A DNA stretch of 52,968 nt, counting the filler, from Basidioascus undulatus (Eukaryota), in assembly GCA_000826855.1 (NCBI GenBank). It is 3 parts of 3 records of this genome, joined end to end, with 100 filler letters (N's around TTAATTAATTAA, not from the genome) between each part and the next. Parts side by side here need not be neighbours in the genome. Positions count along the whole stretch, not along the records: positions 1 to 17,595 come from JTLS01000523.1; 2 more parts are not named here. One strand, 5' to 3'. Both the position numbers and the translations under genes were made by a program. Positions 1 through 51,048 of this stretch are shown here, one piece after another; positions within the stretch are counted from its first letter, which is position 1; each line of letters starts with the position of its first letter. The notes below the pieces were generated by a model. It worked only from the letters and a program-made list of their open reading frames with translations. It was not told the origin of the DNA and searched no databases.

Positions 1-1690
1 ATGGGTGCAGCGGCAGACCATCGTCATCGCCGGTCTTCGCTGGTCCTCGCTGGTCCTCGCTCGCTTCTCTGCCGCTGGTACCCATTTCCTCCCGCTTTCT
101 GTGCCCGCCCATGTGACTTATGTGACTTGGCAGCATCGGCTGTGCGCTCGATGGCGGTGCTCAGTCCGAGCGAGTCATATCCGACCCCAGGCCGAGCTGG
201 TCATCACAGAGGAGGCAAAACGCAGAGCTGCACCAGAAGGAGGCATTTCAGTCGCCGTTCCACGCCGCCCGCGGGGCGTATATCTGTATATCTGTACCGA
301 AAAGCAATGCGCATCGTGTGCCGCGCATGGCGGGCTTGCGCTAGACCGGGCAGGGCACGGCGACTCTTCTCACGTGCCGCAGCAGAGCACGCGGCCGTAC
401 GGCTGTGGAGATGCCACTCGGTGGGGCCGTCTGCTGCAGATGCGCTCTTGAGCCCGATGCGCTCCTGAGCCCTCTCGCAGAGTAGAAGGAGGAAGAGCTG
501 CAGAAATACATGTTCTGACCTCCGAGAAGAAAAGAAAAAAGAAAAGAAAAAAGGACGAAATCGAAGTAAAAGAAGCGTTGGATGCATCTCCACACTGCTC
601 TCTCGGTTGGACTCTTGCCACGCTGCGGACGCATGTACATCCGCCGCCGGCCCTCATGCGAATGCCGGGCGCACAAGGACGAAGATCTTAGCATGGATCG
701 ACCGCCGATCCATCAGTCAGGCGGCTCGAACTGTCAAGTGATACATACAGCACAGCGCGGACGCAAGGCGACCGAAGAGGACGCGAGGCGGAACATTTGC
801 TTGCTGGCGGGCTGGGTTTTGCAGCTAGCTCTGAGGAAACTCGACCCTCCCCGCGAGTCGCAGAAGGTGCATGTCGAGTAGAGTTTTGACGATAGCTAAG
901 AAGGTCGCTTTGTAGCAAGCACGAGCGTCGCATCGCATCCCATCGCGGACTCCGAGCTTGGCTTGCCGTGGACAGGGAGGAGGACGAGGCACATCCTTCC
1001 GTCCCTTGGCGACAACTGTCTTCGCCGCTCTCAGAGTTGATGACCGTGTCTTACTCTTTCGGGTGTCCGTCGCGCATGCGCATGTGTTCGAGTGGGTTGT
1101 TGGCGTTGAAGTCACGGGTGAGCGGGATATGCAGGTGCCCGTCGACGTTCCTATGCCCCAGCTTTCTAGCCCTCCGAGAACGATGAATGCCCCTGGCGGC
1201 GATGCACTATGAGGCAGAACTAAGATAGCGTTTTGCCCGATTCCGAGGCTCGAAGACGTGCTTATTACCGATATGAACACTTCTTCCCCCTTGCGCATCT
1301 TCCCTCTTTGTTTGACGCATTACCTTCTCTCCGCTCTTTGCCCTCCGTCTTTTACCCTTCTTTCGCCTTGAGGTTACACGTGATCGTGTCTTCATCCCCT
1401 TCGATCATGACGTTTACTTCCCTGCGCTCACATGGCCCTTTCACTCATGTTGTTGTTTTTCTCCTGCACACAAACACACCACTTCCGATACACTCCTCCA
1501 CGTTGTTGTTCTTAAAGCCATGATAAAAGGGCCACTTCATCATGTCTACTTTCGCTTGACGATAATACACTAGCTCCTGCTCGGCGGCTGAGTGCTGTTC
1601 ACTTCGATACTTATAACAGGCTGCTTTTCATCTCGCTCTTCTCGTCTACTCACTCTCCCGGCAAGTTTGAGAACTTCGCACTTACTGACC

Positions 1691-4282
1691 ATGATCAAGT
1701 CGGCACGTCTCCCCGTCCGATTCAATTGCTGCGGGTGCAGCCCTCAAGGACAAAGACGAATCTTACGCCCCATCTCCTTGCCCAAAGGCTTTACTGGCAC
1801 TCTTCCTTTGCTCTTTCGCCGCAGCCCAAGTCATCGTTCCCCAATTTCCCAGCTCTCTCGTCATCTTCCCGAACCGCGACTTCATCACCGTCGAAGGCTT
1901 TTCGGAACGCGGACCTCCGGCGGTCACCCCAGGGCAGACGGGCCTCGTCGAGGTCCGCCGCAAGATCGACAGGGTCGACCAAACGGTGGATGTCCAAATC
2001 GTCGGCTCTGCAACCGGCACCGTGTCTGGCGGCGATGTCGCGTTCGAAATCAACCACCCTGGCGGAAGCTGCTGGGGCGACGGCACGGACCTCAAGGTAA
2101 GTTCGCTTCTGTTGTTGGTGGTCCCGCAACAGCAGACCTCACATGCTCTCGTCTCCAGGTCACGCCCAACATCGTAGCGGGAGATGAGGTCTTCCTCTTT
2201 TTCGACGACGGTCAGGTGAGCACTCCACCCGCGGGACAAGGACTACATCGATTCTGAGCACTGACTCCCTTTTTTGTATCGGGACAGGCCGCGATGACGC
2301 CTGTCCTTAACGTCTCTGTCTTCGAGGGTATTCCTGAGCACACCGGTAACACGGTCATCGTCCGGGGCACGGTCGGTGCTGACGTGTTGAACAAAAACTT
2401 CATGGAATCGGTAAGTCTACCCTTCGGAGTGAGATTAAAAAATGAAACCCAGCCTTACCGACATCCCTTCAGCGCATCGTTAACCCCGATTTCGACGACA
2501 CGAGCGTCGGACGCCGCGACGTACGAGCCAATTGGGGGCCGCTGACGGACGCGCCGAAGGGCGGCTACAGGTCCGGCCTGGAGTTAGACCCATTAGACCC
2601 AACCGGAACCACTTGGAAGGCTACGTACGAGTTCGACGATGCGGCGGCTGCCGCCATCGCTGCGACAGGCACAGGTGCTCGCATCATGGCGTGGAACACC
2701 GAGGACCCCGCCGGCGACCCGCAGCAGCTCACCATCGCTGAGGCCGGCGAGTCTGACGGGCCTGGCATGGGCGGCTGCCCAGCCGGCCCAGGGGCTCTTC
2801 CTGCTCCCGTGGGATCCGCGCGCGTCGTACGCTCCGCCGACAAGCTCTCTTACGCGGTGTCGTGGATGCCGGTCGAAGCCGCCCCCGGCACTGCTGCCGT
2901 AACTGGATACAGGTGCGTTTTCCTGTTGCTCCATCTCTTCTTCTTTACTCTTATTTTTCCAGAATCTTTACACTCGGACACGTCTTCTATTATGGTCAAC
3001 AGCGTAGTTGCCGTCTCTCAGACGGCAATTCCCGGTTCTACGTAAGTCATCAATGCATTCGCGGGACTGCTGGAACTCTTGTTGATGTCTGCTTCCTGCA
3101 CTCAGCGACCTCGCTCAAACGAGCTTGCGCGCCAGCGCGTCCACGCCAGGTGTGACAATCAACGTCCCGGACACCAGCGACTACACTATTGAGGTCCGCT
3201 CGTTGGCGGGCCCTCGTATGTCCGAGCCGTTCCCGATCACCACCCCAACGTCAACCGATCCAGGCGGCGGCACCGACATTACCGCGCCCGAGGTCACGGC
3301 CTCCCCGCCCCCACAGGGCACAACTGTCGTGCAAACCTCGCAGGTAGAGCTCTCGACCGAGCCGGGCGCTCTCATCTTCTTCACGACGGACGGCAGCCCG
3401 CCGTACGTGAACGGCATGCCCGCCGCCAAAGCCGAACTGTACACCGCGCCAATAAAGATCACCCAGGAGAACACCATGTGCGTCACGCTCTCCTTTCACC
3501 ATCTGCACCACAGCGCTAATTTTATCTGGCGACTGCAGGCTCAGCTGGGCAGCATGGGACAGCGCGAGCAACTTCATGCCGGACCTAGGCGGCGTTTACA
3601 GTCCCCCTACCGCCTCCACTCAGCCGGGGCCGGCGCCAACACCTCTCCCCGACACCGGTACCTCGAGCGGCAGTCAGGCTACGGCTAACAGCGTGACGAT
3701 GCGGTGGGCCCCGCCTGTCGGGGCAACGCCCGAGAGCTACGTTGTCCGGCTGTTCAGCATTTCGCCGACGTCGCCGCCAACCAGAGACCCTGTCATGCTC
3801 CCAAACACGAACAATCCGAACAGGACGACGAGGGGTACTGCGCTCTCTGTATCTCCCTTGTACCCGCTGCTCGGCTACACGTTCGAGGTCGCGGGCGTTT
3901 ACAACGGCAAGGAGGGGGATATTGGCACGTTTGATGGCGTTCTCCGGCCCACCGATGCGATTACGGTCACCAACCGGTACATCTCGCCACATGCTGAATG
4001 CCATGCAGTGAAACTAACCCTTCACCGTCATTCAGGTGGAGGAGCAGGGACTTCCGCATTTCCATCACTGGCTCGCTTGGGTCGGCGACCATGAAGGTGA
4101 CAGTCAAGGCCTCAACGGGCGTCGACGTAGTGGTCGCCCAAAATGCGCCTTTGGTGACGACGCCAGGCCTCGCCGGCGGAACCCTCGACTTGCGGCCTTC
4201 AGGGTTCAACACCCAGCCTCAAAGCATTACCGTCGAGTCATCGGCGCGCGGCAGGAAAACCGTCCCAATTACGGTCGACTGA
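1691..4282 (+). CDS. Secreted multidomain protein: signal peptide, conserved N-terminal domain of unknown function, FN3-like domain, chitobiase/beta-hexosaminidase C-terminal (Fn3-associated) domain, second FN3-like domain; about 9 exons
   Basis: Spliced reading: MIKS/ALLALFLCSFAAA-QVIVPQFPSSLVIFPNRDFITVEG...AFEINHPGGSCWGDGTDLK/VTPNIVAGD...RIVNPDFDDTSVGRRDVRA...GPGMGGCPAGP...IFFTTDGSPP...YTAPIKIT...LSWAAWDSASN...SVTMRWAPP...YTFEVAGVY. Introns at about 1703-1787 (GC-AG), 2097-2158, 2216-2287, 2411-2472, 2913-3003, 3042-3105, 3479-3538 and 3977-4035 keep the frame to TGA at 4282. Confidence 0.85.
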
Positions 4283-4749
4283 TGGAGCCATGGTAGGCGG
4301 GGATGGGACCTTGGGTCGCGGACTTTCTTCCTATTTCTGGGCTTGACGTTGTCTCATGTACTCTTATTTCTTTTCGGTTTGCTTTCTTCTTGCTTTTTGT
4401 CGCGTCTTTTCGCTTTAATTTCTTCTTGTTTTTTGTCGCGTTCTCAACGCAGGCTGATCAACAGAACACCTTTGCCGTTCTGTACTGAAGCCGCGCAATG
4501 CACTGCACGGCTGCCCAGCGCTCCTTGTCTGAAAACCATGTCCCTCGCTGGCATCGCGTACATATGTGTATGTACGTGCGTCGTGTTGCAACGTGAACAT
4601 GAGCAGATTAAGATTCTTAAGGCTTCGCTATCTTCCAGCTGAACACAGGTGACCCTACATGCATGCCGGCCAGCCCTGTGGACCCCTAACATGGACAGGC
4701 AGAGTTTGGATTTGTCTGTCCAAAAACGACTTTGACGCAACAAATCGTA

Positions 4750-5760
4750 TGTTCATGCTCACCTCAATACTTCCTTACGCGCCTCCAACACCTCCGCAAC
4801 AGCTTTAAGGGAATCACTGAATGTCAGTCTCCTCTACGGCGAAGCTGAGCGAGAGCTCTCGTCGTTAGGTGGCTCATGGCAGTCACGCAGGGCTGCAACA
4901 ATCTTACGCAGTCACCCGCGCCAAGCATGGGCTCCATCAGAATCGCAGCGAGGTCGTGGTGCGGGGCGACGACAAAGTTCTTCGGGCAGCAAATGCCGTC
5001 AAAAGGAAATGGGTCTGCGTGCAAACGATCAGGCCGAGATACTTACATACGGCGCCTTGAGAACGTACAACTGCACTTCCCCGCACCTTTGGCGCCCTCT
5101 TCGGTCTTGGGAAGCTCGCAGTGGCTGAGCATTGAGTCGTGATATCCCCCACAAAAACGAGAACTTCGGAGCGTCCCGTGAACTTAAGAGAGGTCGACAG
5201 TGCGAGCACCTTGGCTTCGGTTCCGAAATTGGCGAAACGGATGATTCGATGGAGGGGAAACGTTGTCGAAGCAGCGACGGCAAGCGTGCAATCAATGATA
5301 CGACCAAAACAACATCATGAATGTGACCCCCCTACAAGGGAAAACTCACCTCGGGCGGGCGCTCCTGCTCCACGGGCTCGAGCCTTTTCAGAACCACAGT
5401 CACGGGACCTGACTCCACGATCACGTTGTCACTGCGCGAAGGCGTGAGAATGCCAGATAATAAAGCTGTAGAGGACTAATCCGAGCCTTATAGACTTACT
5501 GTCCGTCGTCACCGCGAAGCTTCGAGCCTTGAAGGTCCAGGTGAACAACTTGGCTCGGACGCTCCCCTCCTTCCAACCCGACGGGCCATCGATGATGTCG
5601 TTCAAGATATTGTATATATCCCAAGTGCTTTGTCAACACCACCGTCAAGGTCTATATGCACAAGAAGAAAAAAAAGAAAAACCCCTCACCTCATCCGCGA
5701 CGTCCGTCGCAGGAAGATGTCGAAGCCTCTTGTTTCGAGCAGCGTTCTTGCCGTCAATCT
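4750..5760 (-). pseudogene. Degenerate class-III aminotransferase (glutamate-1-semialdehyde aminomutase-like)
   Basis: Minus strand gives RQRFPSIE/(frameshift)IRFANFGTEAKVLALSTSLKFTGRSEVLVF/(frameshift)GGYHDSMLS, then AAILMEPMLGAGDC. These match the RF-NSGTEA, GGYHG and AAILxEPxxG motifs. Weak upstream remnants (QGSKLRGDDG, HSH) are also present. There are multiple frameshifts and large deletions; boundaries are approximate. Confidence 0.75.
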
Positions 5761-6719
5761 GGCAAAGCTAGTTCAATTAGCATATGGTGATGCATATTCG
5801 AAAGTGCAACAAGAAGAGATACGCACGAGTCTTCTGCCCCACTGTTTGCGAATATCTTCACGGTCCTTCAAAGTCCGGAAGAACAGGCCGTTGTTTGTAG
5901 CCCACCGGACCATTGGGGAAGGCCGTCGAGTATCCCAAGGGTCGCTAACAGACGCGATCGTTAAGGCGAAGCCACGAACAGAGACAGGGCAGCAGATTGA
6001 TCCAAAGGCGATGAGAGAGCGAAAGGTGCGCGGGATGCTGAACTGTCGGCGCTGGAAGCAGGTGGGAGAAGTGGTTCAGGAAGTGGAACGGGGTTTGAGA
6101 TATCTTAAGGGACGCAGGATTTGTGGAGGGGAAGGGTGCGTGAAGGCGGAGCGTCGAGTGAAGTGGTGAGGGCTAGGAAGCGGAATATTTCGTTGAAATG
6201 GGTTGCTGCGGAACGTGAGCCGGTGAGCCGGCTTGTCTTGCGCTCCCTGTACTTTCGAGGCTCACGCAAACATTGCGTTCTGTTCCGGTGCGCGGATGGG
6301 AAGGTCAGAACTTGTGGCAATCGGTTCAAAACTCATGCACTACTCTCACCGCTTGATCATGTGTCCAGTTTACGTTTTTGAGTAGCCTCGTCTGCGTCAG
6401 ACTGGGACTCATTGGCACAGTGTGCGTGCGTGAGCCGCTCCCAGCTCTTTCTTCTGGGATGAGCATCAGGTTGCAAAGGTGTTCCCTGGCTGCAGATTTG
6501 AGAGACTATTTGACGGAAGTTAAAGCATCCGAGCGATCGTGTAAAGCTCACGAAGGCCGTATTGCAGTGACGACCCTCCTCGGCGTCCTTCAGCGGGCAA
6601 GGAATAAAGGTAATCAAAACAGTACTAAGCGGCCAGCATCAAGTATCCAGCATCATGCATGTCTCCCGTCTCCTCTATGCCAGCTCCCGCACACAAGTCT
6701 CCCCCTCCCGCTCGTCGAC

Positions 6720-9060
6720 TCATCGCACTTTGAACATGCCGACCTCGGTCTTCCCCTCCCGCGCAGAGTCGGCACCGCCCTGCACGCTGTAGTGAATCTC
6801 GACGTCGAGCTCGCGCGAGTTGTCGGTGCTCTTGAGGCAGTGGAACGTGCCGGAGATGGTCGTTCCTGTTCACCCGTATGGTGTGAGCAGGAGCCGTCGA
6901 GGAAGGAAAAGGGGAAAAGTGGGGAAGGGGGCGAAAAGAGATGACAAACCTTCTTTGACCTCAATCGGCTGGCGCAGCAAGAACAGCGTCTGCTTCCAGT
7001 GCGTCGCCGTGCCCTGCGGGCCAGTCGTGAAGCTGACTTCCCGTCCCTCGCCGTCCTCCTTGCCCCCATCCGGTCCCTTGAAAGTCTCCTCCTTCGGCGG
7101 GTCCACGGTGTTGCATTCCCGCTCGTCGGGGACGGGCTCGCCCGAGGGCGTGAAGAACGTGTCGAAGTAGCCGAGGAAGGCGTGGACTGTCCCCGCGCGC
7201 GTGGCGCGGATGGTGAAGGGCGTGCGGAAGGAGAGCTGCGGGATTTGGATGGTGGAGATGGGGAGTTCCTGTGCGGGGAAAGGGGTTAGTGAGGAGAAGG
7301 GAGGGGGAGGGAAAGGGGAAGGGAAAGGGCACCTTGATGCTCGTGACTGAGGTGATGAGCGCCGAGGAGGAGACGACGTCGACCATCGCCTCGTCGTAGA
7401 CCTCCGAAGCCATCGAGGACATGTTGAAGCCTAGGCGTTTGGCGGACGATGGCAATTAGTAAGACAGCCCACGAAAGAAGCAGGTTAAAGACAAGCAGGA
7501 GCGACACACCGTATATGTCGGACCAGAACAAAACCTTGTCGCGAACGAGCTCGTCATCCTGTACCGCGCCGAGCATGATCCGGCACTGGCTCGGGGCCAG
7601 CACGCCCCCGGGGCGGAGGAAGCGGTCGCGCGCGACGAGCACGGAGTCGAGCATCGCCTCGTAGAGGACTGGGGACGGAGAGAGGTTAACGCGAGGAAAG
7701 AAGAAAGAAGAGAGATGGTCAAGGTAGGGGACACACGGAAGTAACCCATCCACTCAGAGATGACAATGTCCACCTTGTCCACGGGAAGGGTGATCTCCTC
7801 AACCTTCCCCCGAATCACACTGTCTCCCCACCCAGCATCTCCGGTCAGCCTCTCCGCCTCGTCGCAGTACCCAAAAAGCAAAGGAGATGAAACGCACGTG
7901 ATGACACCCTCCGCCCCGTTATCCTTGATGTTCCTCCTGGCCTTCTCAACGACCTCGCTCGCGTCGATCGCGAAGACCTTCTTCGCGCCTGCCCTCGCGG
8001 CGAAGAGACTCAAGATCCCCGAGCCGCACCCGACGTCGAGGACGGTCGCGCCCTTGAAGAGCTTCGGGTTGGAGAGGATGAACTGCGCGTAGGAGGCGGT
8101 GCGGACATGGTCCTTGAGCATGATCTCGTGGATGTCGTTCGACGAGTAGGATTGGAAGTAGTGCTGCGCCCACGCCAAGCAACAACCCCATTCCAGATCA
8201 GTTTCTTGGGGAAAAGAAAGCAGGGAAAAGAGGGGAGAAAAGAAAACGAACAGTGTCGTCGTCACGCTCCGGCTTTGCAGGCGCGTCGCCGGCCGCCCTG
8301 TCCGCAGCGGCTGCCTCGCTGAAGGCTTCAGGACGGAGCTGGGTTTGTACAAGTTGACGGAAGTCGGAGAGGTCCCCGCGGGCTTGCGCGAGCTGCGCCT
8401 CGAGCTCGCGGATCTTGCGCTGTGCGTGGGGGAGGTCGCCCGCCGGCGCGGCGCTGCCCTCGTCGTCGGACCAGTCGTCAGAGTCAAGCTCGAGCTCTAA
8501 AAGCGGGGTGCGAGATGAGTTTAGAGATGAGGTGGAGAAGAGTGAATGAGGAAAGGAACAGGGTAGACGGACGGAGGAGAGGGTCGTCAGGGATGACTGG
8601 GACGAGGTACTCGTCCGCGGAGAGGAACGCTTCTTGGCCGGTGAGCTTGGCGAGGTCCGCTGCAGGAGGACACTGGGAGCGTATGTAGTTCACGAGGCGG
8701 ATAGACTGGTGGAAGTCGAGTGCTGGCCATCCCCTCCCTGTCAGCACTCGCTTCGGTCTTCCAGACGTCCCAGCGCAACTCACCCAGTCTCCCCGCAACC
8801 TCCTTCAAATCAAACCCAAATTTCTCCCGGTCCCACGCGAGCGCCTCCTCCGGCGTAGGGAGGAACTTGCCCTCCTCGAACAGCGAGCGCGTCGCATGCG
8901 CCGCCGCCTCATCTGCGTCTTCCTCCCAGCCTTCGAAGTCGTCCGGCTCCGAGTCGGACGAGGAGGCGGAGGAGCCCGAGTAGGAGGGGGCACGGGCGCT
9001 GGTGGAAGGGCCTGGCACCGCGGCGGCGGAGGAGGAGGGGACGCCGACCTGATAGCTCAT
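6720..9060 (-). CDS. RMT3: Protein arginine N-methyltransferase 3 (ribosomal protein S2 methyltransferase), multi-exon
   Basis: Motifs YFQSYSSNDIHEIMLKDHVRT, VLDVGCGSGILSLFAARAGAKKVFAID, VDIVISEWMGY and THWKQT. The acidic N-terminus with the LDFHQSIRLVNYIRS segment is typical of PRMT3. ATG at 9060, TGA at 6720-6722. Confidence 0.93.
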
Positions 9061-9499
9061 GGTGAAGGTGAGGGTGGGCAACAGAGAAGACGAAACCCGG
9101 CGTGGGCTGCCGTGCGACGAAGTTCTGGCCGGATGCAAACGCGCGGTGCAGGGGCGGACAGTCCGCGGCCAGGCGAGGGCTGCCGCCCGTCTGTGCAGTC
9201 GTTTGCACAAGTCCCGCAACATGTCACTTTCTGAAGGTGGTATTACAGGGTAAAGGAGGGATTCAAGGCCCTTGGAGGAACACCGGCATCGTGGTCTGAG
9301 TCATGACAGACAAACCGACACTGCCGCCTGAAGCAGCTCTTCCAAGCCTCTTGGGATACACCAGATAGGTATCACCCTGCAGGCTGCTCGCATTGCTACA
9401 CCCCCTCGCCTAGGAGCTCCGACCCTGCCGGATCGCCTCAAGGGCGGCCGTATCGGAGATGCCGCAAGACAGCGCACGATGAGCATGGTCGTTTACAGG

Positions 9500-10112
9500 A
9501 GCAAGCGAGTTAACTGACGTTGTGATGAAGGAACACTCCACATTCCTTGGCCTCTCTGGGAGGGCTGCCGCAGAAGAAGAGCTGAATGAAGTGACACGAG
9601 CGATGCGATCGAATGCTCTGGCACAGGTATCACGTACGTGCAAGGCCATCCACGCGGCGTTCAAGTCGAGAAAGGGACGACCTGATCTCCGTAAGCGCGG
9701 AATTTTCTGCCGGTGCGCGTGCGAGTCTGTCGAGCACGGCTGTGTTGGTCTGCATGGCGCTCGTAAGGGCGCAGATGACCGCCCCGAGGGCGTCCTGGCC
9801 TGGGGACGAGGTAGATGAACGATCCACGCCGGCGTTCATCGACGAGGGAGGCTGTTGGTTACACAGAAGAGCAAGGCTCAGCAGTCTTGTCCTTGACGGA
9901 CTTTCCAGGACAAATGTCACTCGTACCGGAGGAGAGCCAGACGCGGAGGAAGAAACAGTATGCGGGCGTTCTGCTGCAATGGTCGCCGAGGACGTATCGT
10001 CAATAGCTGTATTCGGCTCATAGGCATTTATAGACGTCACCGGCGGTGCAGGGTCCGGTGCCTTGGAGGTACGCGTGCGCTCAGCCGAAGCTCGAGGTCG
10101 CCTGGGACGCAT
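9500..10112 (-). CDS. Hypothetical spliced protein with a short coiled coil (possibly decayed)
   Basis: ORF 10112-9630 contains an in-frame GTACGA...GCTGAG...CAACAG intron-like segment and the coiled-coil-like ALTEIRSSLSRLERRVDGL, followed by another GTACGT...CAG intron. No family recognised; 3' end uncertain. Confidence 0.35.
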
Positions 10113-11843
10113 TTTGGCCTGGTGCGGCTCAACCCAACGTTAGCGGTGAGGCGATGATTTGCACCGGCAGGACAGGAGACACCACTTGAATCTTCAAATT
10201 GCTGATGTCTGAACTGGCGGCATTTACAGATCAGTTGACTTGCTCAAGTGCCGTCAGGCGCAAAGATCGCGCAAGGTCGTGGCCCGAGGGTTTCTGAAAC
10301 GAAGCGAACGCAATAAGGAGCCATATCATTGTGCGTGTATAGCAAGAGCAACACGAACCAGAGATGTGAGGATTCGTGTAGGTTCCGGCCGGAGGCGGGC
10401 AAGCTCGTTGCGTACCGAGGCAGGCGGCAGCGCTGACGGGAGATGCTGAGGGGACAAGATTAGCCAAAAAAGACCTATTTAGACAGTTAGGTATCTTCGC
10501 GAGACGTGCATGTGCCAGCTCTTTCGAAACTCGGGGGATCTGTGAGGGGCGCCCCTTTAGTCAGTCTTGTTCCGCGCTCGCCAGCAAGCCCTGAACATGC
10601 CTTTTACCTCGATTCCCGGTCCAGAAGAATTTCCTGAGGGCGCATCTGAGACATGAGCCGAGGTCTACGGGAAAAGGCTTATGAGGTTCGACGAGGTCAG
10701 CAGAAAAATAAAGGAGGTTAGAGTTCGTGCAAGACCGACCACCGCCTCGGTGCGTGCTCGGTGAATCGTACGCTTTAGCGCCTGATATATGGCATACGTG
10801 AGTTTAGGTGTTTGTCAAGTTGCTAGGAGAAAACACACCACAACTTCAAGCTTCAAGCTGCCAGAATTTGCACCTTGTATGCACCAGTTGAGTTGCTCGA
10901 GTTCGGTCAATCGGAATGCCCTTGCACGCTTCCAGAGCGACGAATTCTTACATAAGAGGTGATCAGAGGAAGTTCGGCCAGGGTGAGTACTTAGTGTTGA
11001 TGTCATGACGCACGAGCGACGACACCAGCGAGGTGGGTCCGGGCGGAGACGGCGGAGCTCGCGTTGCAGCATAGGATGCGGAAGCGGTGTTGAGCAAAAC
11101 TGGCCAGGAGACATGGAACGCCACTGTGTATGGGACAAGCGGCTGGTGAGCCGGAGTACGCTAGCTGTGATACGATGAGACTTGCCTCTGCGAGTTGCAG
11201 AGAGACGCCCTAGTCCGGTGCGAAGTGGACGGAGGGCGTCAGCTAGTATATCAGCAACGTTGCCTTTGCGCGAGAAGGGACCGGCTCCTCTTTCTTTTCC
11301 CGGGGTACAGGAGAGCCTCGCCTTCCCCCAGTTGCCGAGGAGCGACAGCGAGAGGGCTCAGGCGCTGCTGCAGAAGCCCTGTTTCACCCCGCTCGCAACA
11401 CATCAGCTCACTGTCTTCGGGCCAGAAAGTAGCATCAGTTACGCACGGCGCGCCAGCATCTTGAGCGCTGGGTGGGAGGAATGGGTGTTCAGTGATCGTG
11501 ACTTCGGCTCTGAGGCTTCTCTTGCGCGCCGTAACCTCCTTTACGTAGTCAAAGTTTATTTTTGATTCGCTTCTTGTTATCGCGCGGATGGATTGAGCAC
11601 AATAATGCCTGCCATCGGTATGTGCTTCAGTGGTTATCGTCAAGCACCAAGAGTCATAACGAATGAACAGGGGAAAACAAAATAGAAGTTGATAAGATTA
11701 CCACCGCCCCTTGAAACGCCAAACTACCTGTGACGCAACATCGTGTGCACGACCGACGGAGAGTGCTCTCTGGCTCTCACCGCCGCCACCACCACCACAC
11801 ATCTGCAGTGATCCGCCGTATGCTACGAATCTCTTAGAAAATT

Positions 11844-13111
11844 ATGTCGGATTCCGGCAGCCCTCCAACGCCCCCGCGGCGGACGCTCCTCTCTCTCCCG
11901 CCGGAGTTGCTCTCTCATATCCTCTCCTTAGCGCTCGTCCTCCCCGAAGACGCAGTCTCGCAGGCACGGACAGGCCCCGAGAGCGCGCGGCCGCTCGCGC
12001 TGGAGTCTGTGAGGACACGGAGGCGGGTAATTCGGGTTTGCAGGACATTCTATGTGAGTCTGCATGGCTGTCCTTTCCATCGTGCAATTGGAGATTGATG
12101 AAGCTGGCGTGGCACGTCAAACAGGACCTCGCGCAGCCGTGGCTTTCGCACCAGCGCATCGTACTCTCCCCGGAATCATTCCCCTTCTCCTCCTCTTCCC
12201 ACCCACAACCGTCCGCGCCATACCCCGTTCTCTCAGTGATCTACGAGCCCCTCCCTCATCTGCGCTTCCCGTCGCTCGACCCGCTGTTCGCGGGGCTACC
12301 GCACCTTCCGCAACTCCAACACCTTCATCTCCCCCGGACTACGCGCATCGACCTCTCTCTCCTTCTCCCCACTCTCTCCGCGCACACGTCGCATCTCCGC
12401 ACCCTGAGCCTCGGCGCGATCCGCGAGACGGACGACCTTTGGGCCCTCCTTGCCGCGCTCCCATCTCTACGCACCCTCGAACTCGCCAGCCTCGGCCACG
12501 CACCGAGCTGGGCTGTCATTCGGCGCCCCGCGACGGTCCTCTCTGCCATGAGCGACTGGGTGCCGGACGACGAGCCCGTGCATTCTCACGCCGCGCTGGA
12601 GAGCCTCGCGATCGATCGCCTCTTTGACGGCTCGGAGGGCTCGCTACTCCGCGCGCACTTGCCTAATTTGGTGCATCTCCAGCTGTCCACGCACACAGCG
12701 TCCTTCTCTCTCGCCCTCAATCGTATCGTCGGGCTCGGCTCGCTCCGCTCCCTCGCACTGCGAAGCGAAGCGCAGCGGCCGGACGAGCTCGTCGACGCGC
12801 TGCTCCGGCTCGAGGCGTTCCTCGACGCGCTGGCGGGTGCGGGATCGCTCGGTGCGCTGGAGGAAGTCCGAATCGTGGGCAGCACGCCGGTGCTGAGGAC
12901 GGGCGGGCTGGGCGGACTCGTGCACGAGCACACACCGCGGGCTGAGGAGGAGGCCGATCGCGTCTGGCGGGAGGTCGAGGGCGACGGTCGACTTGAAGGC
13001 CTCGAGAGCCGGCTTGCTTGGCTTGTGAGGAAGCTTGGGGCGGCCGGGGTGGAGGTGCGGAACGGGGAGGGTAGGGAGTTTGGGATGAGGGCGTTTTGTG
13101 CGGGCAGATGA
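11844..13111 (+). CDS. F-box-like / leucine-rich-repeat protein, 2 exons
   Basis: N-terminal LLSLPPELLSHILSL...VIRVCRTFY. Intron 12054-12124 (GTGAGT...CAG). Repeated LxxLxL segments follow (LQHLHL, LRTLSL, LRTLEL, LVHLQL, LRSLAL). Confidence 0.8.
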
Positions 13112-14487
13112 AGGAAGGGTCGGTAGATGGGTGGCTGCTGGCTTCTGACGCCACCGCGTTGCAGAATTGGAGGTATCGGATGCTTGCTTGATTCTGAGAA
13201 CGTGCTTTTGAAGCGTGCGTGTGGAAGTGGCAGGGTTATTCGCCGGCGTACGCAGGACCTCTTGGGCCTTCCGGTATGGCTCTCGTGACTATGTGTAAGC
13301 GGGAGAGTGAGTAGTAGGTTTGGGATGGTTGAAAAAAGGCTCTGATGCTCAGATCTCTTACGCTCGAAAATGCATTTGCGCAAGTTGCTGCAGTGTTCAA
13401 CACGTACTCGGTCCAACGGACATACAGCTCCATATCAGCTTTTCCAGCCTTTCCAGCAGAATCCATCAATGTTGTCAGAATAAAACATCACCTATTTCTT
13501 ATCGTAGTGGTTTGATCAAAGGGTGGGTAAACCATTCCACCCCTCTACGCAACAGTGCTCGTGGCTAAGGCTGAAGGAACATATCATCTTCAGCCGTCAG
13601 CCTTCCTCATGCCAATCGGGGGATTCTACAGGTCAAGGATATTTAACATCGTAAGTTTTGCTTTTCAAATTTACGATACAACCAGAGCAGATTAATGTTT
13701 GGCCATCATGGAAAAGCGGTGCAGGCCGTCAACTTGCTGTTTCGCATACTATAGTTGTGCCTTGGGCTGTGATGATTTAGTGGGGTACACACTGCATCTT
13801 CCACTGTTTATCGGAGAGCTCAACACCAAATCGGGATGGGTGACTGCAAGTTACCAGTCGACGGTAATGCGGACAGGCCGTGGTGTAGCGCTGGCTCCGT
13901 CTGAACTGTACACCTTCGCTACACCCCACTTGGCCTCTTTGAATTAGAAGGTCTATATCCTTAGAAAGGTCCATTACACCAACCCCGAAAGGTACTCGCA
14001 AAGCCAGGCGCAGTCCTACGGCTGCCTCGCCCTTGACCTGCCTCCACTTACGGTGTTGACTCGCACTGGGCGTTGAGGACCCGCTTGAGTCTTAGCCACG
14101 TGCTTTGGGGGAGGAAGAGCTGAGAAGGCAACATCACGTTTGACTTTCTAAGGATCTCAGGTGGGGCCTCGCCGGCCAACCTTGTATCTGCCAGTCCCAA
14201 GGCGGTTGTCCACCGAGGAGTAAAGGAAGGTCAGTTGATCCGGCACCGGGCAGCCCGTTTCTACAACTGCCGTCTACTACCGCCCATATCGTGTGCCGTT
14301 CAGAAGCCACAACATTCGATCGACCATCATATGGCACGTGAACAGCTACTCTCCAGCTAGTCTGTGCTTGCCCAGATTCGCCGTTCCTTGGCCTGGTCTT
14401 ATCTGTCGAAGTTGTGAAGCAGTCAAAAGACCGGCGCGTCGACTCCTTTACTCTCAACCACCTCCCACACATTCAGCTTCAGCCAAG

Positions 14488-17400
14488 ATGGAACCCACTT
14501 CAATTGTGTCAGCAACGCCTACGATGGACCCGACGGAGCGAAAGAGACTGGAGAGAAGGGTCCTTTTCAAGTTGGACGTGCACGTCCTGCCGGCTCTGGC
14601 ATTCCTCTGGCTGTGAGTGGCATGGTCAGCTAGTACTCGAATTGCTGCTTATATGGAAGTTATACATGCAAGGATGAACTTTATCGATCGTGAGCTGTAC
14701 CCCTTGCGGCAGGGCTTTCTGTGACGAGGCTGATCTGGTCAACTACAGGGAGCAACATGTGAGCGGGTTCCGTATTCGCTGAGGCCGTGATCTTGGGGTT
14801 GACAGATGGCCCTTCACAGCGGAAATGCTCGTATAGCTGGCTTGGAAAGAGACCTTGGGTTAAAGGGAAACCAATTCAAGTGCGTTCCATAATTCCAAGC
14901 TGCGAACCGTCATCCTGCAGGGTCATCTCAACGTACCTTACTACAGCATCGCACTCTCTGTGTTCTATATAACGTACGTTCAAGCCGGATCACAACCCCA
15001 CGTCCATGAATTGATAGTTTCAATTTCCCTTTCAGCTACATCATAGTCGAGATACCGTCAAACATGTTCGTGGCGTGCGCCTGCCCTTCCGCTGCATTCT
15101 GACGTCTCATGCTCATTAGGGTTCTTAAGCGCGTCGGCGCAAACATCTGGTTGCCGGCACTCGTTTGTGCATGGGGACTTGTTACGACTCTGTCGGGATT
15201 CGTTCAGAACTTCGCCGGTGAGCATGTACCATAATGAGAGCAATCAGCAATTTCTCACGAAGACTTCTTCAGGGCTGGTTGCGATTCGCATGGTGCTCGG
15301 CTTTTGCGAAGGCGGTCTCCTGGGAGGCATGGTGCTCTATCTTTCCACGCTATACCGGTACGTTAGCACATCGAGGATAACTCTTTGTTACGGTGCTGAT
15401 CTCAGATGTTTGCCAGGCGCCACGAGTTCCAGTTGCGAGTGGCGCTCTTTTACGCAAGTGCCAGCTTGTCGGGAGCTTTTGGCGGCTTGCTTGCGACAGG
15501 ACTGGAAAGTGTGTCATTTCACAATAAGATCTTTGTGGGTGGGAGGACTCGTCGCTGACCCATTCGTGGTGGCCAGAAATGAACGGGCTTGGAAACCTTG
15601 CAGGATGGCGTACGTAGTTTATCCCGTTTGGCCTCGCCGTGAGCAGTACTGATTGCGAGGGCGTACTTCAGGGTGGATCTTCATCATAGAGTTTGTCTCC
15701 TCTCAAGTTTTGCGAGACTTCCTGAAGTCTGAGCGGGCTGTTGCAGGGGAATTGCAACGATCGTCGTTGGCGTCGTCTCGGTGAGCTTCTCACTAGAACT
15801 AACGATTTTGCGGGTTCTGACACTCAGGGGTATTTGGAGGCTCTGGTTATGCCCGAGAACGTTCTCAAGGCTCGTTTTCTTAACGAAGAGGAGCGACACT
15901 TTGCCTGTAAGCATTTCAAATGAAAAGGATGGTGTTATGCCCGCCTGCTGATCGTCCAAGCGAGCAACAGATGACCGTCTGCGTGACGACATGCACGCTG
16001 CAGAAGGGTTGGTCCAGGGACTTACTTCTGCGAAAGAATACGAGAACGACAAGCAAGACATCACGCACGTAGAAGACTTCGAGTCCACTCGCCAGACTCC
16101 CATCGTGCCGCAGATGGACGAGAAGTTCGAGTGGCGGGAGTTGCGTCGGGGTTTGTGAGTATTCGATACATGTGCGGGGTAGAATTTGTGTACCGGTCTA
16201 ACAACCGTGAGTTGTGTAGGTCGGATGTCCAGGTCTGGCTGACTGGATGCGCGTACATGGCTATATGCGTTTCTCTCTATTCTTTTTCCCTCTTTCTGTA
16301 CGTTCTTCTCCATGATTCAAGGGAATTTGGGAACTGACCTTCCTCCCCCAGGCCTACGATTGTGGTCGGGCTTGGTTACGTGAGACCCTTGCGTTCCATC
16401 GTCGGTTTCCGCTCTGTAGGACTGACAGAATTTTCGCAGTCCGGCACCCGAGCACAGCTCTTAACGGTTCCGCCATACGTCCCGGCCACCGTATGCCCAT
16501 CCAATACTTTCTCACAGGCCCACGCTGATAATTCCTTGAAGGTCATTGTTATCCTCATCGCGTTTGCAGCGGACAAACTGCGCTGGCGCGGTCCTTTCAT
16601 GCTGATGTTCTTGCCCATATGCATTGCTGGTACGTGCCTTTGGGGTCTCCGCAATCCAATGAACATGCTAAATCAATGTCACTCTCCTTACAGGATACGT
16701 AAGGGCTCCATTACTCCGCAGTGTACCAGGGTTTGAAGCCGGAGCTCATGACGCTGTCACTGCAGGCTCTGATGCTCGCTGCCGACACTAACGAGCAGCG
16801 CTACGCTGGTGTTTGTAAGGAAAATTTAACACTAGAAGAAATGTACTGAGAAACTGAAATCTCTTCCCCTCAAGTTCTTATCGCACTGGGGCTGTACCCA
16901 TCGGTCCCGTCCCTCTTGTGTCCGTCGTTTTCAGCTGCCCCGTCCGATTAATGCGCTCCACGTAACTCACTCATTATCCTTACAGCTATTCTTCCTGTCA
17001 GTGACTATCCGCCTCTCTCGCACGCATACTTCCGTTCGACATTCCCAGTGCTAACTGATCAGGTGCAGAACAACCACGCTGGCCACTATAAACGTGCGAC
17101 CACTACCGCCTTCCAACTTATGCTAGCGAACCTCGCAGGCTTCATCGCGACGTTCATTTACCGCCCCGAAGACAAGCCCCTGTACCGCCCAGGAAAGCCT
17201 GCGCGACTCCACCCTTCACGTCCACTTCTAGGCATTAACCTTCTCCCACATAACCACAGGCCACGCAATTACTCTTGGATTCGTCTGTCTCGCCTGGGTC
17301 TTGATCGCCGCAAACGTCACCTACTGTTGGTGGGAAAACAAAGCGCGTCGTGAAGGCCGGCGCGAAGGCAACATCGCTGCGTATAACGAGCTCGTTCGGC

Positions 17401-17516
17401 AAGGCAAGACGAGCGCACCGATAGGTGATCGTAATCCGAGGTAATCTCAGTTGAGTCCAACCCGTCTGAACAAGCACTAACAGCATCCCAACTTAAGGTT
17501 CATGTACACGCTCTAA
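14488..17516 (+). CDS. MFS transporter, anion:cation symporter family (Dal5/Tna1-like); roughly 20 introns
   Basis: Spliced motifs ERRVLFKLDVHVLP, NFIDRSNIGNARIAGL, IVEIPSN, RMVLGFCEGGLLGG, AGWRWIFIIEG, AQLLTVPPY, NNHAGHYKRAT, YCWWENKAR, ending RFMYTL* at 17516. Confidence 0.93.
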
Positions 17517-17595
17517 AACTATCATGAATACCCTCCCTCCCTTCACCAAGGACATCTACACCCTCCCCTACCCTCTCCCTATTGTCACCTTCCTT

Positions 17596-17962: not shown

Positions 17963-18361
17963 CGAGGAGTCGATAATGATGATCGAATGTCAGTATGATG
18001 AGAGGGTTAAGAAACCCGCGCTCGTGTGCGCTGGGTCGTGCTCGTCGTTCGAGATCAAGAGGCGGTGAATGGGCTGGTGGGAGCTTTGCTTCCGGTCCTC
18101 CGCGTATCCACCGCGGAATGTCCCAGGCCGGCCGGCGACGGAAACGCCCGGTCTTCTCGCTTGCTTCCTCCGCCCTTCTCCTCACACTCCTTGCTACATT
18201 TGCAGTACTGGCAACTGTGGTTCGAACACATCGATCGAATTTCTTCTTGTGAGGCTTCGGGAACCCGCTTTCTGTACGCTAGGTTCCAAATGTAACCAGC
18301 GAGATGCCTCGATTCGCTCACCGGCGTCTTCCTCTGTCGATGTTTCTTCAGATCTTCCATC

Positions 18362-20115
18362 ATGCTCGCTCGAAACTGCTCAAGAATAGCTCGGATACTC
18401 TCTCGAACTGCAGCTTCTCCTTCTTCGTTGCGGCTACAGCCTGTCCTGGCTTATGCCGCTCGCACACTGTCAACGTCCCGCACCGCCTTGGTCGATGCCA
18501 CAACAGCCGCGAAACCTGCGCCGGCACCTTCGAAAACCTGTGCATATCCTTCTCACACTTTGGGCGAATCCTCTCTTATGTTAAATTTTTACCAGACCTC
18601 CCACCCATCACCGTCGACGGCCAGACGTTCGTGCGCGACGCATGGACGAACACCCCTCCCTCGATCCTCTCTCTCCTCCCCCGGCGACTGCACATGAACC
18701 CCGCGCACCCCATCGGGATCCTCCGGCACCTCCTCGAGTCCTACCTCCCCACCTACACGCATCTCAGCGCCCCCTCGCCCATCGTCACCGTCAAGCAGAA
18801 CTTCGACGACCTCGGCTTCCCCGCCGACCACCCGGGCCGGTCCCGCGGCGACTCGTATTACCTCGACGCGCGCACGATGCTGCGCACGCACACATCCGCG
18901 CACGAGCCGGAGGTGTTTGCCCGCGGCGAGGACCGCTGGGTTCTCACTGCGGACGTGTACAGGCGGGACGAGATCGACGCGAGCCATTATCCCGCGTTTC
19001 ACCAGATGGAGGGCGCCCATGTTTGGGATAGGAGCACAATCAAGGACGTGCTTCCTGCGGAGATTGCGAGGCTGCGGGCGGAGCTCGACCAGGCGAAGCT
19101 CATCATCGAGGATGAAACGCTACCGAACTCGCCTACGAACCCGTACCAGGCACAGCATGATCCCGAGATGTGCGTTTTCCATCGAGCTTTCCTACATTCC
19201 TGCGAAAGTTAATGCTTGACGCGGATTCTTTTCTCGCAGTGCTGCTCTGGTCGCCGACCACCTCAAGGCCCCCCTCAGCGGGCTGGTCTACAGGCTCTTC
19301 AGCGGGCTGCAGCGGCCCGGCGACGAGCCGCTGCGGGTACGCTGGATCGAGGCGTACTTCCCGTGGACCGGTCCGTCCTTCGAGGTCGAAGTCATGTACC
19401 GGGGCGAGTGGCTGGAGCTTCTCGGCTGCGGTATGATGTCCCAAGACGCTCTGGACCGGTTCGGTTCGTCTTCTCATTTCTTCGTCTCCCTACCGCTCTC
19501 TCCCTGCTCCCACTCACTCCCTCCTGACCGTGTCTCCCGCGCTTAGGCGTCCCCCAGAAGACCGGCTGGGCGTTTGGCCTCGGCCTCGAGCGCATCGCGA
19601 TGGTACTCTTCAACATCCCGGACATCCGCCTCTTCTGGTCCGTCGACGAGCGCTTCGCGCGCCAGTTTGCGCCCGGGCGTGTCAGCACGTTCGAGCCGTA
19701 CAGCCGCTTCCCGCCGTGCTACAAGGACATCAGCTTCTGGCTCCCCGAGCAGTGGCATGAGAACGACTTTTTCGAGGTCGTCCGCGAGGTCGCGCGCGAC
19801 TCGGTCGAGGACGTCAAGCTCGTAAGTGGCGCACTATGCCCATCTTTAATCTCAACAGCCAGAAGGATGACTGATTGAAATGGAACATGGGAACAGATCG
19901 ATGACTTCACGCACCCCAAGACGGCCCGGAGAAGCGTGTGCTTCCGCGTCAATTACCGCTCGATGGACCGGTCTGTCCTCTTAGCTCTCGCGTCCCCGCA
20001 CTCATGGCTTACCACAATGCTTATCTGCAGCAACCTGACCAACGAGGAGGCGAACGAGCTGCACGCGAAGGTGACGGACAAGCTCGTGCGGACGCTCGGC
20101 ATCGAGCCGCGATGA
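18362..20115 (+). CDS. MSF1: Mitochondrial phenylalanyl-tRNA synthetase (monomeric, with C-terminal FDX anticodon-binding domain)
   Basis: Arg/Ser-rich presequence; [79 protein letters not shown] and [10 protein letters not shown]. Confidence 0.96.
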
Positions 20116-49755: not shown

Positions 49756-50017
49756 AAGTGTATCTGATGGAAGTAATTACGAGGAGGTTCTCTGGGTATC
49801 GATAGGACGTTTGGCCTTCAACAGCGAGCACGAAGGGTGCGGTGGGCAGAACGCAAGCCGCGACGGCGAGGACGCGTCGAATTGCTTGCGCGTCGAAATC
49901 GCACGTGATTGATTGAGTGAAAGTGGCTGGCTTCCTTCGCCAGCGCAGCTGCGCAGGCCACTTTCGTTCCTTCCGCCATTTTGAACACCCTTACAGCCCC
50001 CGAGCAGGGGATCAACC

Positions 50018-51048
50018 ATGGCGCTCACATTCCTGCACCCGATCACTCACAACTTGCCCTTCTTCATCCGCGAGCCAGCAACAGCCATCATCGGCGAGGT
50101 GTGCCATCTCCCTCCTCTCCCCCTCTTCCTTCCCAATCCCCCACTGATCTCTCCCTCCCAGAAATGCTACAACACCCTCATATACGATGCGGATATTTTT
50201 GACGCCGACTGCCTGCGCTTCGCCCTCTCCAAAGCGCTCGGACTGGGCATCGTCCTTGGCGGGGCGATCCTCAAGCTACCCCAGATCGCGATCATCCTCC
50301 GCGGGCGCAGCGCGCGCGGACTCGACTTTACCGCGCATGGGCTTGAAACAGTCGCATATTCGGTCAGCCTCGCGTATGCCGCACAGCGGGGGTACGCCTT
50401 CAGCACGTACGGGGAGAACGCGTTCCTGGCAGCGCAGGTGCGTCTTCCTCCTCCTGGCCCCCTCCTCCCACACCCTCGCACGCTCATACTTGCCCCCCCG
50501 GCAGAACGTCGTCATCCTCTTCCTCGTCCTGTACTACCGCCCCGTTTCCCCGCGCGCCCTAGCGCTCTACGTCCTCGCGCTCCTCCTCGCGGGCGCTGCC
50601 CTCTTCGCCGCGCCCCTCCCGCTCCTCGCGACGCTGTTCAACCTCTCCATCCCTCTCTCACTCTCCTCAAAGGTCCCACAGATCCTCGCGAACCACCGCG
50701 CGCGCTCGACGGGCCAGCTCAGCGCCTTCGCTGTCTTCAACCAGCTCGGAGGGTGCCTCGCCCGCGTGTTCACGAGCGTCACGGAGGCGGGCGGGGATAC
50801 CGCGCTCTTACTTAGCTTCGTGGGCGCCGCGGTATTGAACTGCGTGATCGCTTGGCAGATGGTCGTGTGTCTTTCGCTGCTTCCTCTTCCTTTCGGCACG
50901 GTTTGGTCACTGATGGCGCGGACTGCGGGCGGATGCACAGAAATACTGGGGCCAGGGTCAAGTCGGACCGGAGGACGGCGTCGAGCTGGAGAGTGTCAGC
51001 CTCGGCAGCGAGTCGTCCAAGCGGAACAGCTTGCGGAAACAGGACTAG
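50018..51048 (+). CDS. MPDU1: Mannose-P-dolichol utilization defect 1 protein (PQ-loop), 4 exons
   Basis: CLRFALSKALGLGIVLGGAILKLPQI, FSTYGENAFL, SKVPQILAN..ARSTGQLSAF and GCLARVFTS. Ends RKQD* at 51048. Confidence 0.93.

Follow-up and report, generated by a model that had tools for sequence, protein, structure and literature searches.

How does a fungus come to carry a gene, divided by spliceosomal introns, for a protein that resembles those secreted by Actinomycetota, and what might such a protein do? The question is raised by positions 1691-4282 (+ strand) of a 52,968-nucleotide (nt) stretch of Basidioascus undulatus DNA (GCA_000826855.1), hereafter the window, which consists of three records joined by filler (positions 1-17,595 are JTLS01000523.1). 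Positions are counted along the whole window, and the joined parts are not necessarily neighbors in the genome. A first-pass annotation had proposed that this locus encodes a secreted protein with FN3 modules and stems from an old bacterium-to-fungus transfer followed by intron gain. That proposal is upheld by bacterial relatives, by nesting of the gene in a bacterial clade, by its introns and by the fungal genes beside it. A bacterial origin of the gene is very likely, and the account as a whole, of an expressed fungal gene that was acquired from bacteria and then domesticated, is likely.

Homology to secreted proteins of Actinomycetota

The spliced product was 40-44% identical to five Actinomycetota proteins of 637-687 amino acids (aa), over 615-631 aligned residues and from end to end. 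The similarity extends beyond generic FN3 modules: it is colinear throughout and strongest in the N-terminal domain, where exon 5 reaches 55-65% identity with bacterial proteins. A BLASTP search with the N-domain exon (2473-2910, 146 aa) retrieved 458 proteins at E ≤ 1e-3 (length 257-2000 aa). The best 120 of the 458 were 54-63% identical to the query and mostly 620-700 aa long, and every named one among them came from Actinomycetota (Nocardioidaceae, Solirubrobacteraceae, Microlunatus flavus, Arthrobacter crystallopoietes, Friedmanniella and Propionibacteriaceae). Across prokaryote contigs, with one genome per species, a relative was encoded in 218 of 346 pattern-matched stretches; the best 80 of the 218 confirmed loci were all from Actinomycetota and included Arthrobacter and allies, Actinoplanes, Krasilnikovia, Pseudonocardia, Microlunatus, Phycicoccus, Terrabacter, Nakamurella, Solirubrobacteraceae and Ilumatobacteraceae.

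When 1.84 billion cluster representatives were searched exhaustively with phmmer, 212 scored E ≤ 1e-3 and 117 of them E ≤ 1e-10, each one standing for a cluster at 50% identity. The best E-value was 7.8e-41, the closest representative was 65% identical, and the window's own protein was not in the library. Searching with the conserved exon at near query length returned 32 matches (best 62%); the six that were inspected were bacterial fragments ending in out-of-frame tails, and among these matches neither a eukaryote-like exon fragment nor a copy of the window protein was seen. The bacterial family is marked by a motif set (FPxRDF, AFE[IV]NHPGGxCWG, VTPDI..GD, RRD[IV]RA and GGPGMGGCPAGP), all of which is present in the window gene. 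The resemblance to secreted FN3 proteins of the Arthrobacter and Nocardioides type that the first-pass annotation had named is borne out by these searches.

The genes flanking 10 of the bacterial loci include no conserved partner. A BTAD/Trans_reg_C (SARP-like) regulator adjoins the family gene or lies one gene off at two of these 10 loci (L064, Arthrobacter agilis, and L075, Terrabacter sp.), which we take as chance.

Gene structure and splicing

The locus is a nine-exon gene ending in a TGA stop codon at 4280-4282. All five motifs quoted in the first-pass annotation (FPNRDFITVEG, AFEINHPGGSCWG, VTPNIVAGD, VGRRDVRA and GPGMGGCP) were found in open frames, and its coordinates and the two Cys that it placed in the mature N-domain are correct. 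Seven internal introns were set by eye. All are GT..AG introns of 59-90 nt, with GTAAGT, GTGAGC, GTGCGT or GTACAT as donors and CTAAC- or CTGAC-like branch sites in several. They are required because end-to-end colinearity with the bacterial proteins depends on their removal, which yields an open product of 674 aa from 1788 to the TGA (roughly 680 aa with the putative exon 1). The alignment of this spliced product with the five bacterial homologues has no gap at any of the seven exon junctions.

Exon 2 (1788-2096) would encode the remainder of the signal peptide (to ~1832) and holds the start of the N-domain with FPNRDFITVEG and AFEINHPGGSCWG; it is followed by intron 2 (2097-2158, 62 nt, GTAAGT..CAG), which colinearity with the homologues demands. 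Exon 3 (2159-2215, with VTPNIVAGD) and exon 4 (2288-2410) were placed by frame and homologue alignment and flank intron 3 (2216-2287, 72 nt). Intron 4 (2411-2472, 62 nt) leads into exon 5 (2473-2912), the most conserved exon, which contains the second half of the N-domain (RIVNPD, VGRRDVRA and, at 2758-2781, GPGMGGCP) and the start of the first FN3 module (FN3-1). After intron 5 (2913-3002, 90 nt), exon 6 (3003-3041) contributes 13 codons within FN3-1, and after intron 6 (3042-3105, 64 nt), exon 7 (3106-3477) supplies the end of FN3-1, a linker and, from ~3311, the CHB_HEX_C_1/Fn3_assoc module recognized by Pfam. Beyond intron 7 (3478-3538, 61 nt), exon 8 (3539-3976) encodes the end of the CHB_HEX_C module, a Pro/Thr/Ser linker and the second FN3 module (FN3-2, ~3672-3911), as placed by Pfam and homologue alignment. 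Intron 8 (3977-4035, 59 nt, GTACAT..CAG) precedes exon 9 (4036-4282), which encodes a C-terminal domain of ~80 aa (WRSRDFRISITG...), colinear with the bacterial C-terminal domain, and the TGA. All of these features are on the + strand.

Splicing was followed in contigs from three runs (X1, X2 and X3) that span two studies, X2 and X3 being from one sample. Joints in X3 contigs skip exactly six of the seven internal introns, introns 3 to 8 (72, 62, 90, 64, 61 and 59 nt), with GT..AG ends; at intron 7 the shorter side of the contig measures 246 letters. For intron 2 X3 contains only an imprecise 74-nt skip (2068 to 2143), on one divergent contig. The same introns are retained in X1 and X2 (~35 million letters each), and none of the X3 joints occurs there. 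X3 comprises 15.7 million letters in 36,764 records and behaves like a transcript assembly, although it is listed as 'DNA?'. We read it as a transcript-derived data set; even if X3 were DNA, its joints would still show that exactly these introns leave the mRNA.

The 5' end called for an eighth intron, because the ATG at 1691 and the signal-like ALLALFLCSFAAAQV at 1788 are in different frames, the latter frame having no upstream ATG. We enumerated every ATG together with one intron joining the FPNRDF frame, and only 1715-1787 had a length (73 nt) that falls between the shortest and the longest of the other seven introns; its donor, GTCCGA, is weak and its acceptor is AAG. Joining 1714 to 1788 gives MIKSARLPALLALFLCSFAAAQV and then VIVPQFP, opposite which the alignment places AVPxFP at the mature N-terminus of the bacterial homologues, and it is only through this putative intron that the signal-like MIKSARLPALLALFLCSFAAAQV is obtained. 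Putative exon 1 (1691-1714, +) would then consist of the ATG and seven codons (MIKSARLP) that form the n-region of the signal peptide. From the sequence, putative intron 1 (1715-1787, +) is the most plausible solution for the start; a 49-nt intron at 1707-1755, which also leaves an open frame, is the alternative. A second version of the gene, described below, has an additional T behind 1715, and its acceptor reads CAG in place of AAG owing to an A>C change at 1785. Both changes are harmless only within an intron, so they lend indirect support to an intronic 1715-1787. With this putative intron the total is eight, in line with the 'about 8' counted at first.

Genomic context and composition

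The window contains ordinary fungal genes. At 18283-19212 (+) lies the class-II core of a mitochondrial phenylalanyl-tRNA synthetase, for which a search covering proteins of at least 542 aa gave, as best named matches, Rhodotorula toruloides (61%) and Rhizoctonia solani and Tulasnella (55%), then Ascomycota (41-53%), Mucoromycota and chytrids. By this one neighboring gene the host is a fungus and probably a basidiomycete. A PRMT/PrmA-like methyltransferase is encoded at 7456-8496 (-) and a protein with PQ-loop repeats at 49985-51299 (+). GC content at third codon positions (GC3) is 0.75 in the gene, as against 0.55-0.80 in eight neighboring open reading frames and 0.83-0.94 in four bacterial homologues, and no compositional step was seen at the gene along the window.

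Bacterial contamination or an assembly chimera would explain the protein's bacterial affinity and nothing else. The gene has eight GT..AG introns with fungal-type branch sites, shares its window with fungal genes, has a host-like GC3 and is present in two versions, in runs from two studies. The introns had already been cited against contamination, and with the fungal neighbors and the recurrence of the gene in two studies they rule this explanation out. Judging by the 40-44% identity, the host-like GC3 and the eight introns, the transfer appears to be old.

Upstream of the gene, at ~1496-1553 (140-190 nt before the ATG), read depth rises to 609 in X1 and 1620 in X2, from ~40-100 nearby, and contigs diverge into unlike sequence at 1496, 1505, 1537, 1540 and 1553. 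The stretch looks like a dispersed repeat or a common promoter element. It has no second copy inside the window, and no repeats of at least 40 nt were found there.

Phylogenetic placement

Trees were built from full-length proteins and from the N-domain. A quick tree of 75 full-length rows, in which bacterial families cluster by taxonomy, attached the window protein beside Solirubrobacteraceae on a very long branch (1.6). For the careful full-length tree (65 rows, 616 columns), rooted on a subfamily of Actinomycetota with two tandem N-terminal domains (split 100/100), the window protein fell within a 56-row crown clade (100/100) and, inside this, within a 48-row clade (100/92) that comprises all 43 crown Actinomycetota rows, the window and the alga Tribonema. 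There it was sister to P0036, a metagenomic bacterial protein (94/78), inside a Pseudonocardia-type group (86/97) and apart from the chytrids. N-domain trees used 67 rows with the tandem-head subfamily as outgroup; the careful one, of the highest likelihood obtained for these rows (log-likelihood, lnL, -25146.9), has a polytomy as backbone and again makes the window protein sister to P0036 (81/86).

The basal grade of the full-length tree consists of Geranomyces, a group of AT-rich rows, P0273, Fimicolochytrium and Borealophlyctis. A phylogeny had been suggested at the outset as a check on the proposed transfer; in it the window gene lies inside the crown Actinomycetota clade, and the chytrid rows are basal and outside the 48-row clade.

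The basal grade of chytrid and AT-rich eukaryote-like rows, obtained with outgroup rooting, would fit a transfer in the opposite direction, in which the family is eukaryotic and Actinomycetota were the recipients. We regard such a reverse transfer, or an ancestral eukaryotic gene, as highly improbable. The outgroup subfamily itself belongs to Actinomycetota (Rubrobacter, Nocardioides), no fewer than 218 species-representative prokaryote genomes, of several classes, contain the family, with bacterial families clustering taxonomically, and apart from the window's organism just four genera supply the named eukaryotic members. An artefact is also to be expected where long branches lie basally as a grade near a long outgroup.

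Other eukaryotic members

Eukaryotic members were sought among the 212 phmmer representatives by screening for leader peptide and composition, and 20 were looked up. Five proteins are from chytrids (two from Borealophlyctis nickersoniae, one from Geranomyces michiganensis and two from Fimicolochytrium jonesii) and one is from the xanthophyte alga Tribonema minus; no other eukaryote name occurred among the 20, which makes four genera besides the window's organism. The library holds protein representatives, and unannotated fungal genomes, including those of Basidioascus relatives, are outside its reach. Within this scope the broad fungal distribution that would speak for vertical descent was not seen, the fungal members being the five chytrid proteins from three genera. 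The chytrid and Tribonema proteins are 40-53% identical to the window's conserved exon, below the best bacteria (up to 65%); for all looked-up eukaryote and eukaryote-like representatives the range is 35-54%.

Five unnamed representatives (P0273, P0356, P0375, P0385 and P0363) have short eukaryote-type leaders and a very AT-rich composition (A+G+R+P down to 0.17) and are probably further eukaryotic recipients. Four of them fall in one strongly supported clade; P0273 is within the AT-rich clade in the N-domain trees (94/94 or better) and separate in the full-length tree.

Domain architecture and the head domain

Pfam was scanned exon by exon, and FN3-1 is divided among three exons. Exon 3106-3477 matched CHB_HEX_C_1 (PF13290; 4.4e-9, 36.6 bits against a cut-off of 22) and Fn3_assoc (PF13287; 3.4e-7, 30.7 bits against 23), and exon 3539-3976 alone matched fn3 (PF00041; 6.6e-5) with 23.5 bits, just under the cut-off of 25; no family was found in the N-terminal exons or the last exon. 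The order FN3, Fn3-associated, FN3 first read from the sequence is therefore confirmed by Pfam for the middle module, with fn3 itself just short of its threshold. In the bacterial homologues Pfam finds fn3 twice (55-81 bits) and CHB_HEX_C_1/Fn3_assoc in the same layout as in the window gene, and no family in the first ~280 or last ~100 residues; FN3-2 of the window gene aligns with the fn3 of these homologues. The architecture is a novel N-terminal head, FN3, CHB_HEX_C/Fn3_assoc, FN3 and a C-terminal beta domain. A chitobiase/beta-hexosaminidase of family GH20 was considered and rejected, as only the accessory C-terminal module is present and Pfam finds no catalytic family in the window exons or the bacterial members.

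The head was modeled with AlphaFold2 from the family member P0029 and an alignment of 115 sequences, and both halves were modeled and searched as one piece. The mean predicted local distance difference test score is 83, exceeding 90 for residues 40-260, and the model is all-beta with two sandwiches (~40-140 and 135-260). As modeled, the head is two tandem immunoglobulin (Ig)-like beta-sandwiches without a specific known relative. Foldseek against the PDB returned only single-chain variable fragments and tandem-Ig proteins with template modeling scores of 0.15-0.24, and among 48,161 chains compared by VIA-align the highest Z was 5.2 (T-cell receptor V domains, IL-21R and an accessory domain of the chitinase ChiW). 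These matches are generic for Ig-like folds and indicate neither a function nor a new fold. A PDB profile search matched the FN3 part only and gave nothing for the head; for the latter there was also nothing in NCBIfam, nothing credible in Pfam at E ≤ 10 and no usable match in the ESM Atlas. The first-pass annotation could name no function for this domain, and the searches of Pfam, NCBIfam and the PDB, which yielded no relative, accord with that.

Thirty head columns are invariant in the 115 bacterial sequences, and the window protein keeps 26 of them. The conserved core (R-D, E, N-H-P-G-G-x-C-W, T-P-D, E170/R172, R186/D187, Y203, R237, W241, E257, E260 and G-G-P...C-P) is retained in the window protein, the chytrids, the alga and the tandem-head outgroup. 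Across the family the head is accompanied by FN3, CHB_HEX_C, Big_5, Big_13, PKD, CBM96 and F5/8-type-C modules, and Pfam detects no known catalytic domain in any member examined.

Three further candidate identities for the head were tried and rejected. Lytic polysaccharide monooxygenases (LPMOs) have a His brace in which a histidine is the first residue of the mature protein; for an AA9/AA10/X325-like enzyme of this kind, the mature N-termini do not fit, being A-V-P-x-F-P in the bacteria and V-I-V-P-Q-F-P in the window protein, and the only near-invariant His is internal (NHPGG). A CnaB-type intramolecular isopeptide domain was set aside since the conserved columns include no invariant Lys, and a cytochrome-b5-like heme site, which 'HPGG' might bring to mind, since the model is all-beta.

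The tandem-head subfamily (P0306, P0307, P0334, P0393, P0288, P0300, P0331 and P0333) is divergent and comes from Rubrobacter tropicus, Rubrobacteraceae and a Nocardioides/Nocardia isolate; some members add Big_5, Big_13, CBM96, F5/8-type-C or NHL modules. The two heads of one protein pair together in trees for three of four proteins (two of the four pairings being well supported), a pattern suggestive of internal duplications that recurred or of concerted evolution.

Two versions of the gene

Both X1 and X2 contain the window version of the gene and a ~95% identical version at roughly 1:2 depth (14-18 and 33-40 in X1; ~45 and 83-88 in X2), and X3 contains spliced contigs of both. The nine listed indel rows whose length is not a multiple of three all lie within predicted introns; two of them, additional T's at 2229 and 2230, may represent a single insertion whose placement differs by one base between the two runs. 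The only other listed indel is an in-frame AGG insertion behind 2666. Divergence is patchy, with 5-6% at 1785-3132 and 4066-4239 and three differences in the 698 nt at 3087-3784. The two versions could be alleles of a non-haploid or hybrid genome, or the product of a recent duplication with gene conversion.

Proposed history of the gene

We propose that an ancestor of the fungus, probably a basidiomycete, acquired a gene for a secreted Actinomycetota protein of ~650 aa. Since then the gene has gained spliceosomal introns (eight with the putative intron 1) and drifted in base composition to that of its host, and it has probably exchanged its bacterial leader for a short eukaryote-type signal peptide encoded in part by the putative exon 1. 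Its product would be secreted. The NHPGGxCW loop and the GGPGxGGCP linker, with one conserved Cys each, would probably be clamped by a disulfide; the head would recognize a polymer outside the cell, in all likelihood a glycan, and might also act on it, and the remaining modules (FN3, CHB_HEX_C and C-terminal) would serve as spacers or auxiliary binders.

Several observations count against this account, the first of them phylogenetic. The window branch is long (1.29-1.6 changes per column), so that its exact sister is uncertain, and the basal position of the chytrids beside the long outgroup branch may be long-branch attraction. In the N-domain data, constraining 12 eukaryote or eukaryote-like rows to one clade gave a likelihood above that of the quick free tree (p = 0.79 in the approximately unbiased, AU, test); in the full-length data, uniting 10 such rows lowered lnL by 19.84 and was not rejected (p-AU 0.147). 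A single eukaryotic clade thus stands unrejected in both AU tests, and independence of the window gene from the chytrid copies is not established.

These tests are compatible with one ancient bacterium-to-eukaryote transfer, for instance into an early fungus, that gave rise to all eukaryotic copies (those of the window, the chytrids, Tribonema and the AT-rich sequences) and was followed by massive loss or by transfer between eukaryotes. The quick N-domain tree, in which the window protein is placed weakly (83) with Fimicolochytrium and Tribonema, points the same way, as does the change R250P (P0029 numbering; in the loop at window 2720-2735) common to the window protein, both Fimicolochytrium proteins and P0375, which reflects convergence or else a weak remnant of ancestry common to eukaryotic copies. 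A single transfer is nonetheless unlikely. The sister of the window protein in both careful trees is bacterial, none of 200 bootstrap trees for either careful tree unites the eukaryotes, and well-supported branches of the full-length tree require the eukaryote label to change no fewer than three times. Moreover, the window exon is nearer to bacteria than to the looked-up eukaryotes, and loss in nearly all fungi would be required. We lean toward a transfer independent of the chytrid copies: separate acquisition of the gene in the lineage of the window is favored but not proven, and eukaryotes may have received it more than once.

Other points concern expression and constraint. No run is recorded as RNA, the kind of X3 is a guess in its listing, and expression is read from the spliced contigs; exon 1 and the signal peptide are putative, as X3 has no cover at 1621-1727. 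The invariant loop GNRQG has become GDPQQ in the window protein (three columns), and G262D alters a fourth. Of the 89 substitutions that separate the two versions, 40 are listed (22 non-synonymous, 11 synonymous and 7 intronic), a subset that may reflect weak or relaxed constraint. As to function, the fold matches are generic, the neighborhoods of the 10 bacterial loci are unconserved and no observation directly indicates a substrate.

A decaying or neutral passenger, transferred and still transcribed after losing its bacterial role, would fit the excess of non-synonymous changes among the 33 listed exonic differences, the similarity of exon divergence in the 5' half (~5-6%) to intron divergence and the four altered invariant columns. 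We consider it quite doubtful: the frame is open over nine exons in both versions, with frame-breaking indels in introns only; 26 of the 30 invariant columns and all core motifs are kept; splicing is precise at six introns; and, to judge by its eight introns and host-like GC3, the gene has long been resident and was not lost. The domesticated, expressed gene of bacterial origin is thus the explanation that we retain.

Comparison with known systems

With the Actinomycetota family the window protein shares the five-part architecture, 40-44% overall and 55-65% head identity, the motif set and the two cysteines. It differs in its eight introns, lower GC3 and changed GNRQG loop, and in its leader, which is predicted to be short and eukaryote-type, whereas the bacterial leader is long and Ala-rich. 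The chytrid and Tribonema proteins resemble it in their head motifs, short eukaryote-type signal peptides and lengths (559-694 aa); they are less similar to it than bacterial proteins are and do not group with it in the careful trees. Our full-text literature search found no paper on the family with this head, FN3 and CHB_HEX_C, and no studied member. The locus draws attention to an uncharacterized family that is widespread in soil Actinomycetota and whose head has no Pfam, NCBIfam or PDB entry.

Extracellular glycoside hydrolases and LPMOs of bacteria can carry FN3 and CHB_HEX_C accessory modules. The family resembles them in being secreted, in having FN3 and CHB_HEX_C/Fn3_assoc behind an N-terminal head and, in some variants, in the addition of CBM96 and F5/8-type-C; unlike them, no family member examined has a known catalytic domain. 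On the strength of sequence and model, a glycan-directed function, in which the head would recognize or act on an extracellular glycan or wall polymer, is a tentative suggestion that falls somewhat short of an even chance. Repeated capture by unrelated osmotrophic or walled eukaryotes suggests that the function is extracellular and portable. A more far-reaching idea, which we think unlikely, is that the head is a new extracellular catalytic or ligand-capturing module (for example, a carbohydrate-active one) that three or more eukaryotic lineages, among them a Dikarya fungus, chytrids and a xanthophyte alga, received in separate transfers. Were Actinomycetota to have donated it in this way, the head would be of use to osmotrophs.

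Bacterium-to-fungus transfer with subsequent intron gain is already well documented, and the event itself is unsurprising. A survey of 829 Dikarya genomes reports 20,093 prokaryote-derived genes, 44% of them intron-bearing, with a mean donor identity of 46% (PMC11708051); in early-diverging fungi, Actinomycetia are among the donors to chytrids, signal peptides are frequent, and multi-intron xenologs occur in chytrids (PMC11291939). Event1247 in the accessible part of the supplement of PMC11708051 includes Streptomyces/Nocardioides FN3 proteins and a GDSL esterase and could not be tied to the window's family, and the accessible part of PMC11291939 does not mention fibronectin. As far as the accessible parts of these surveys go, the window gene resembles the transfers they describe in its bacterial donor, its predicted secreted product, its later intron gain and its low donor identity. 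It is an unusually clean case, with the bacterial architecture kept over ~620 residues, eight introns gained (six of them exactly excised in X3), a signal peptide that was probably replaced and a fully ameliorated composition. It departs from those transfers in that it is not a metabolic enzyme of known function and in that its eight introns are a high count.

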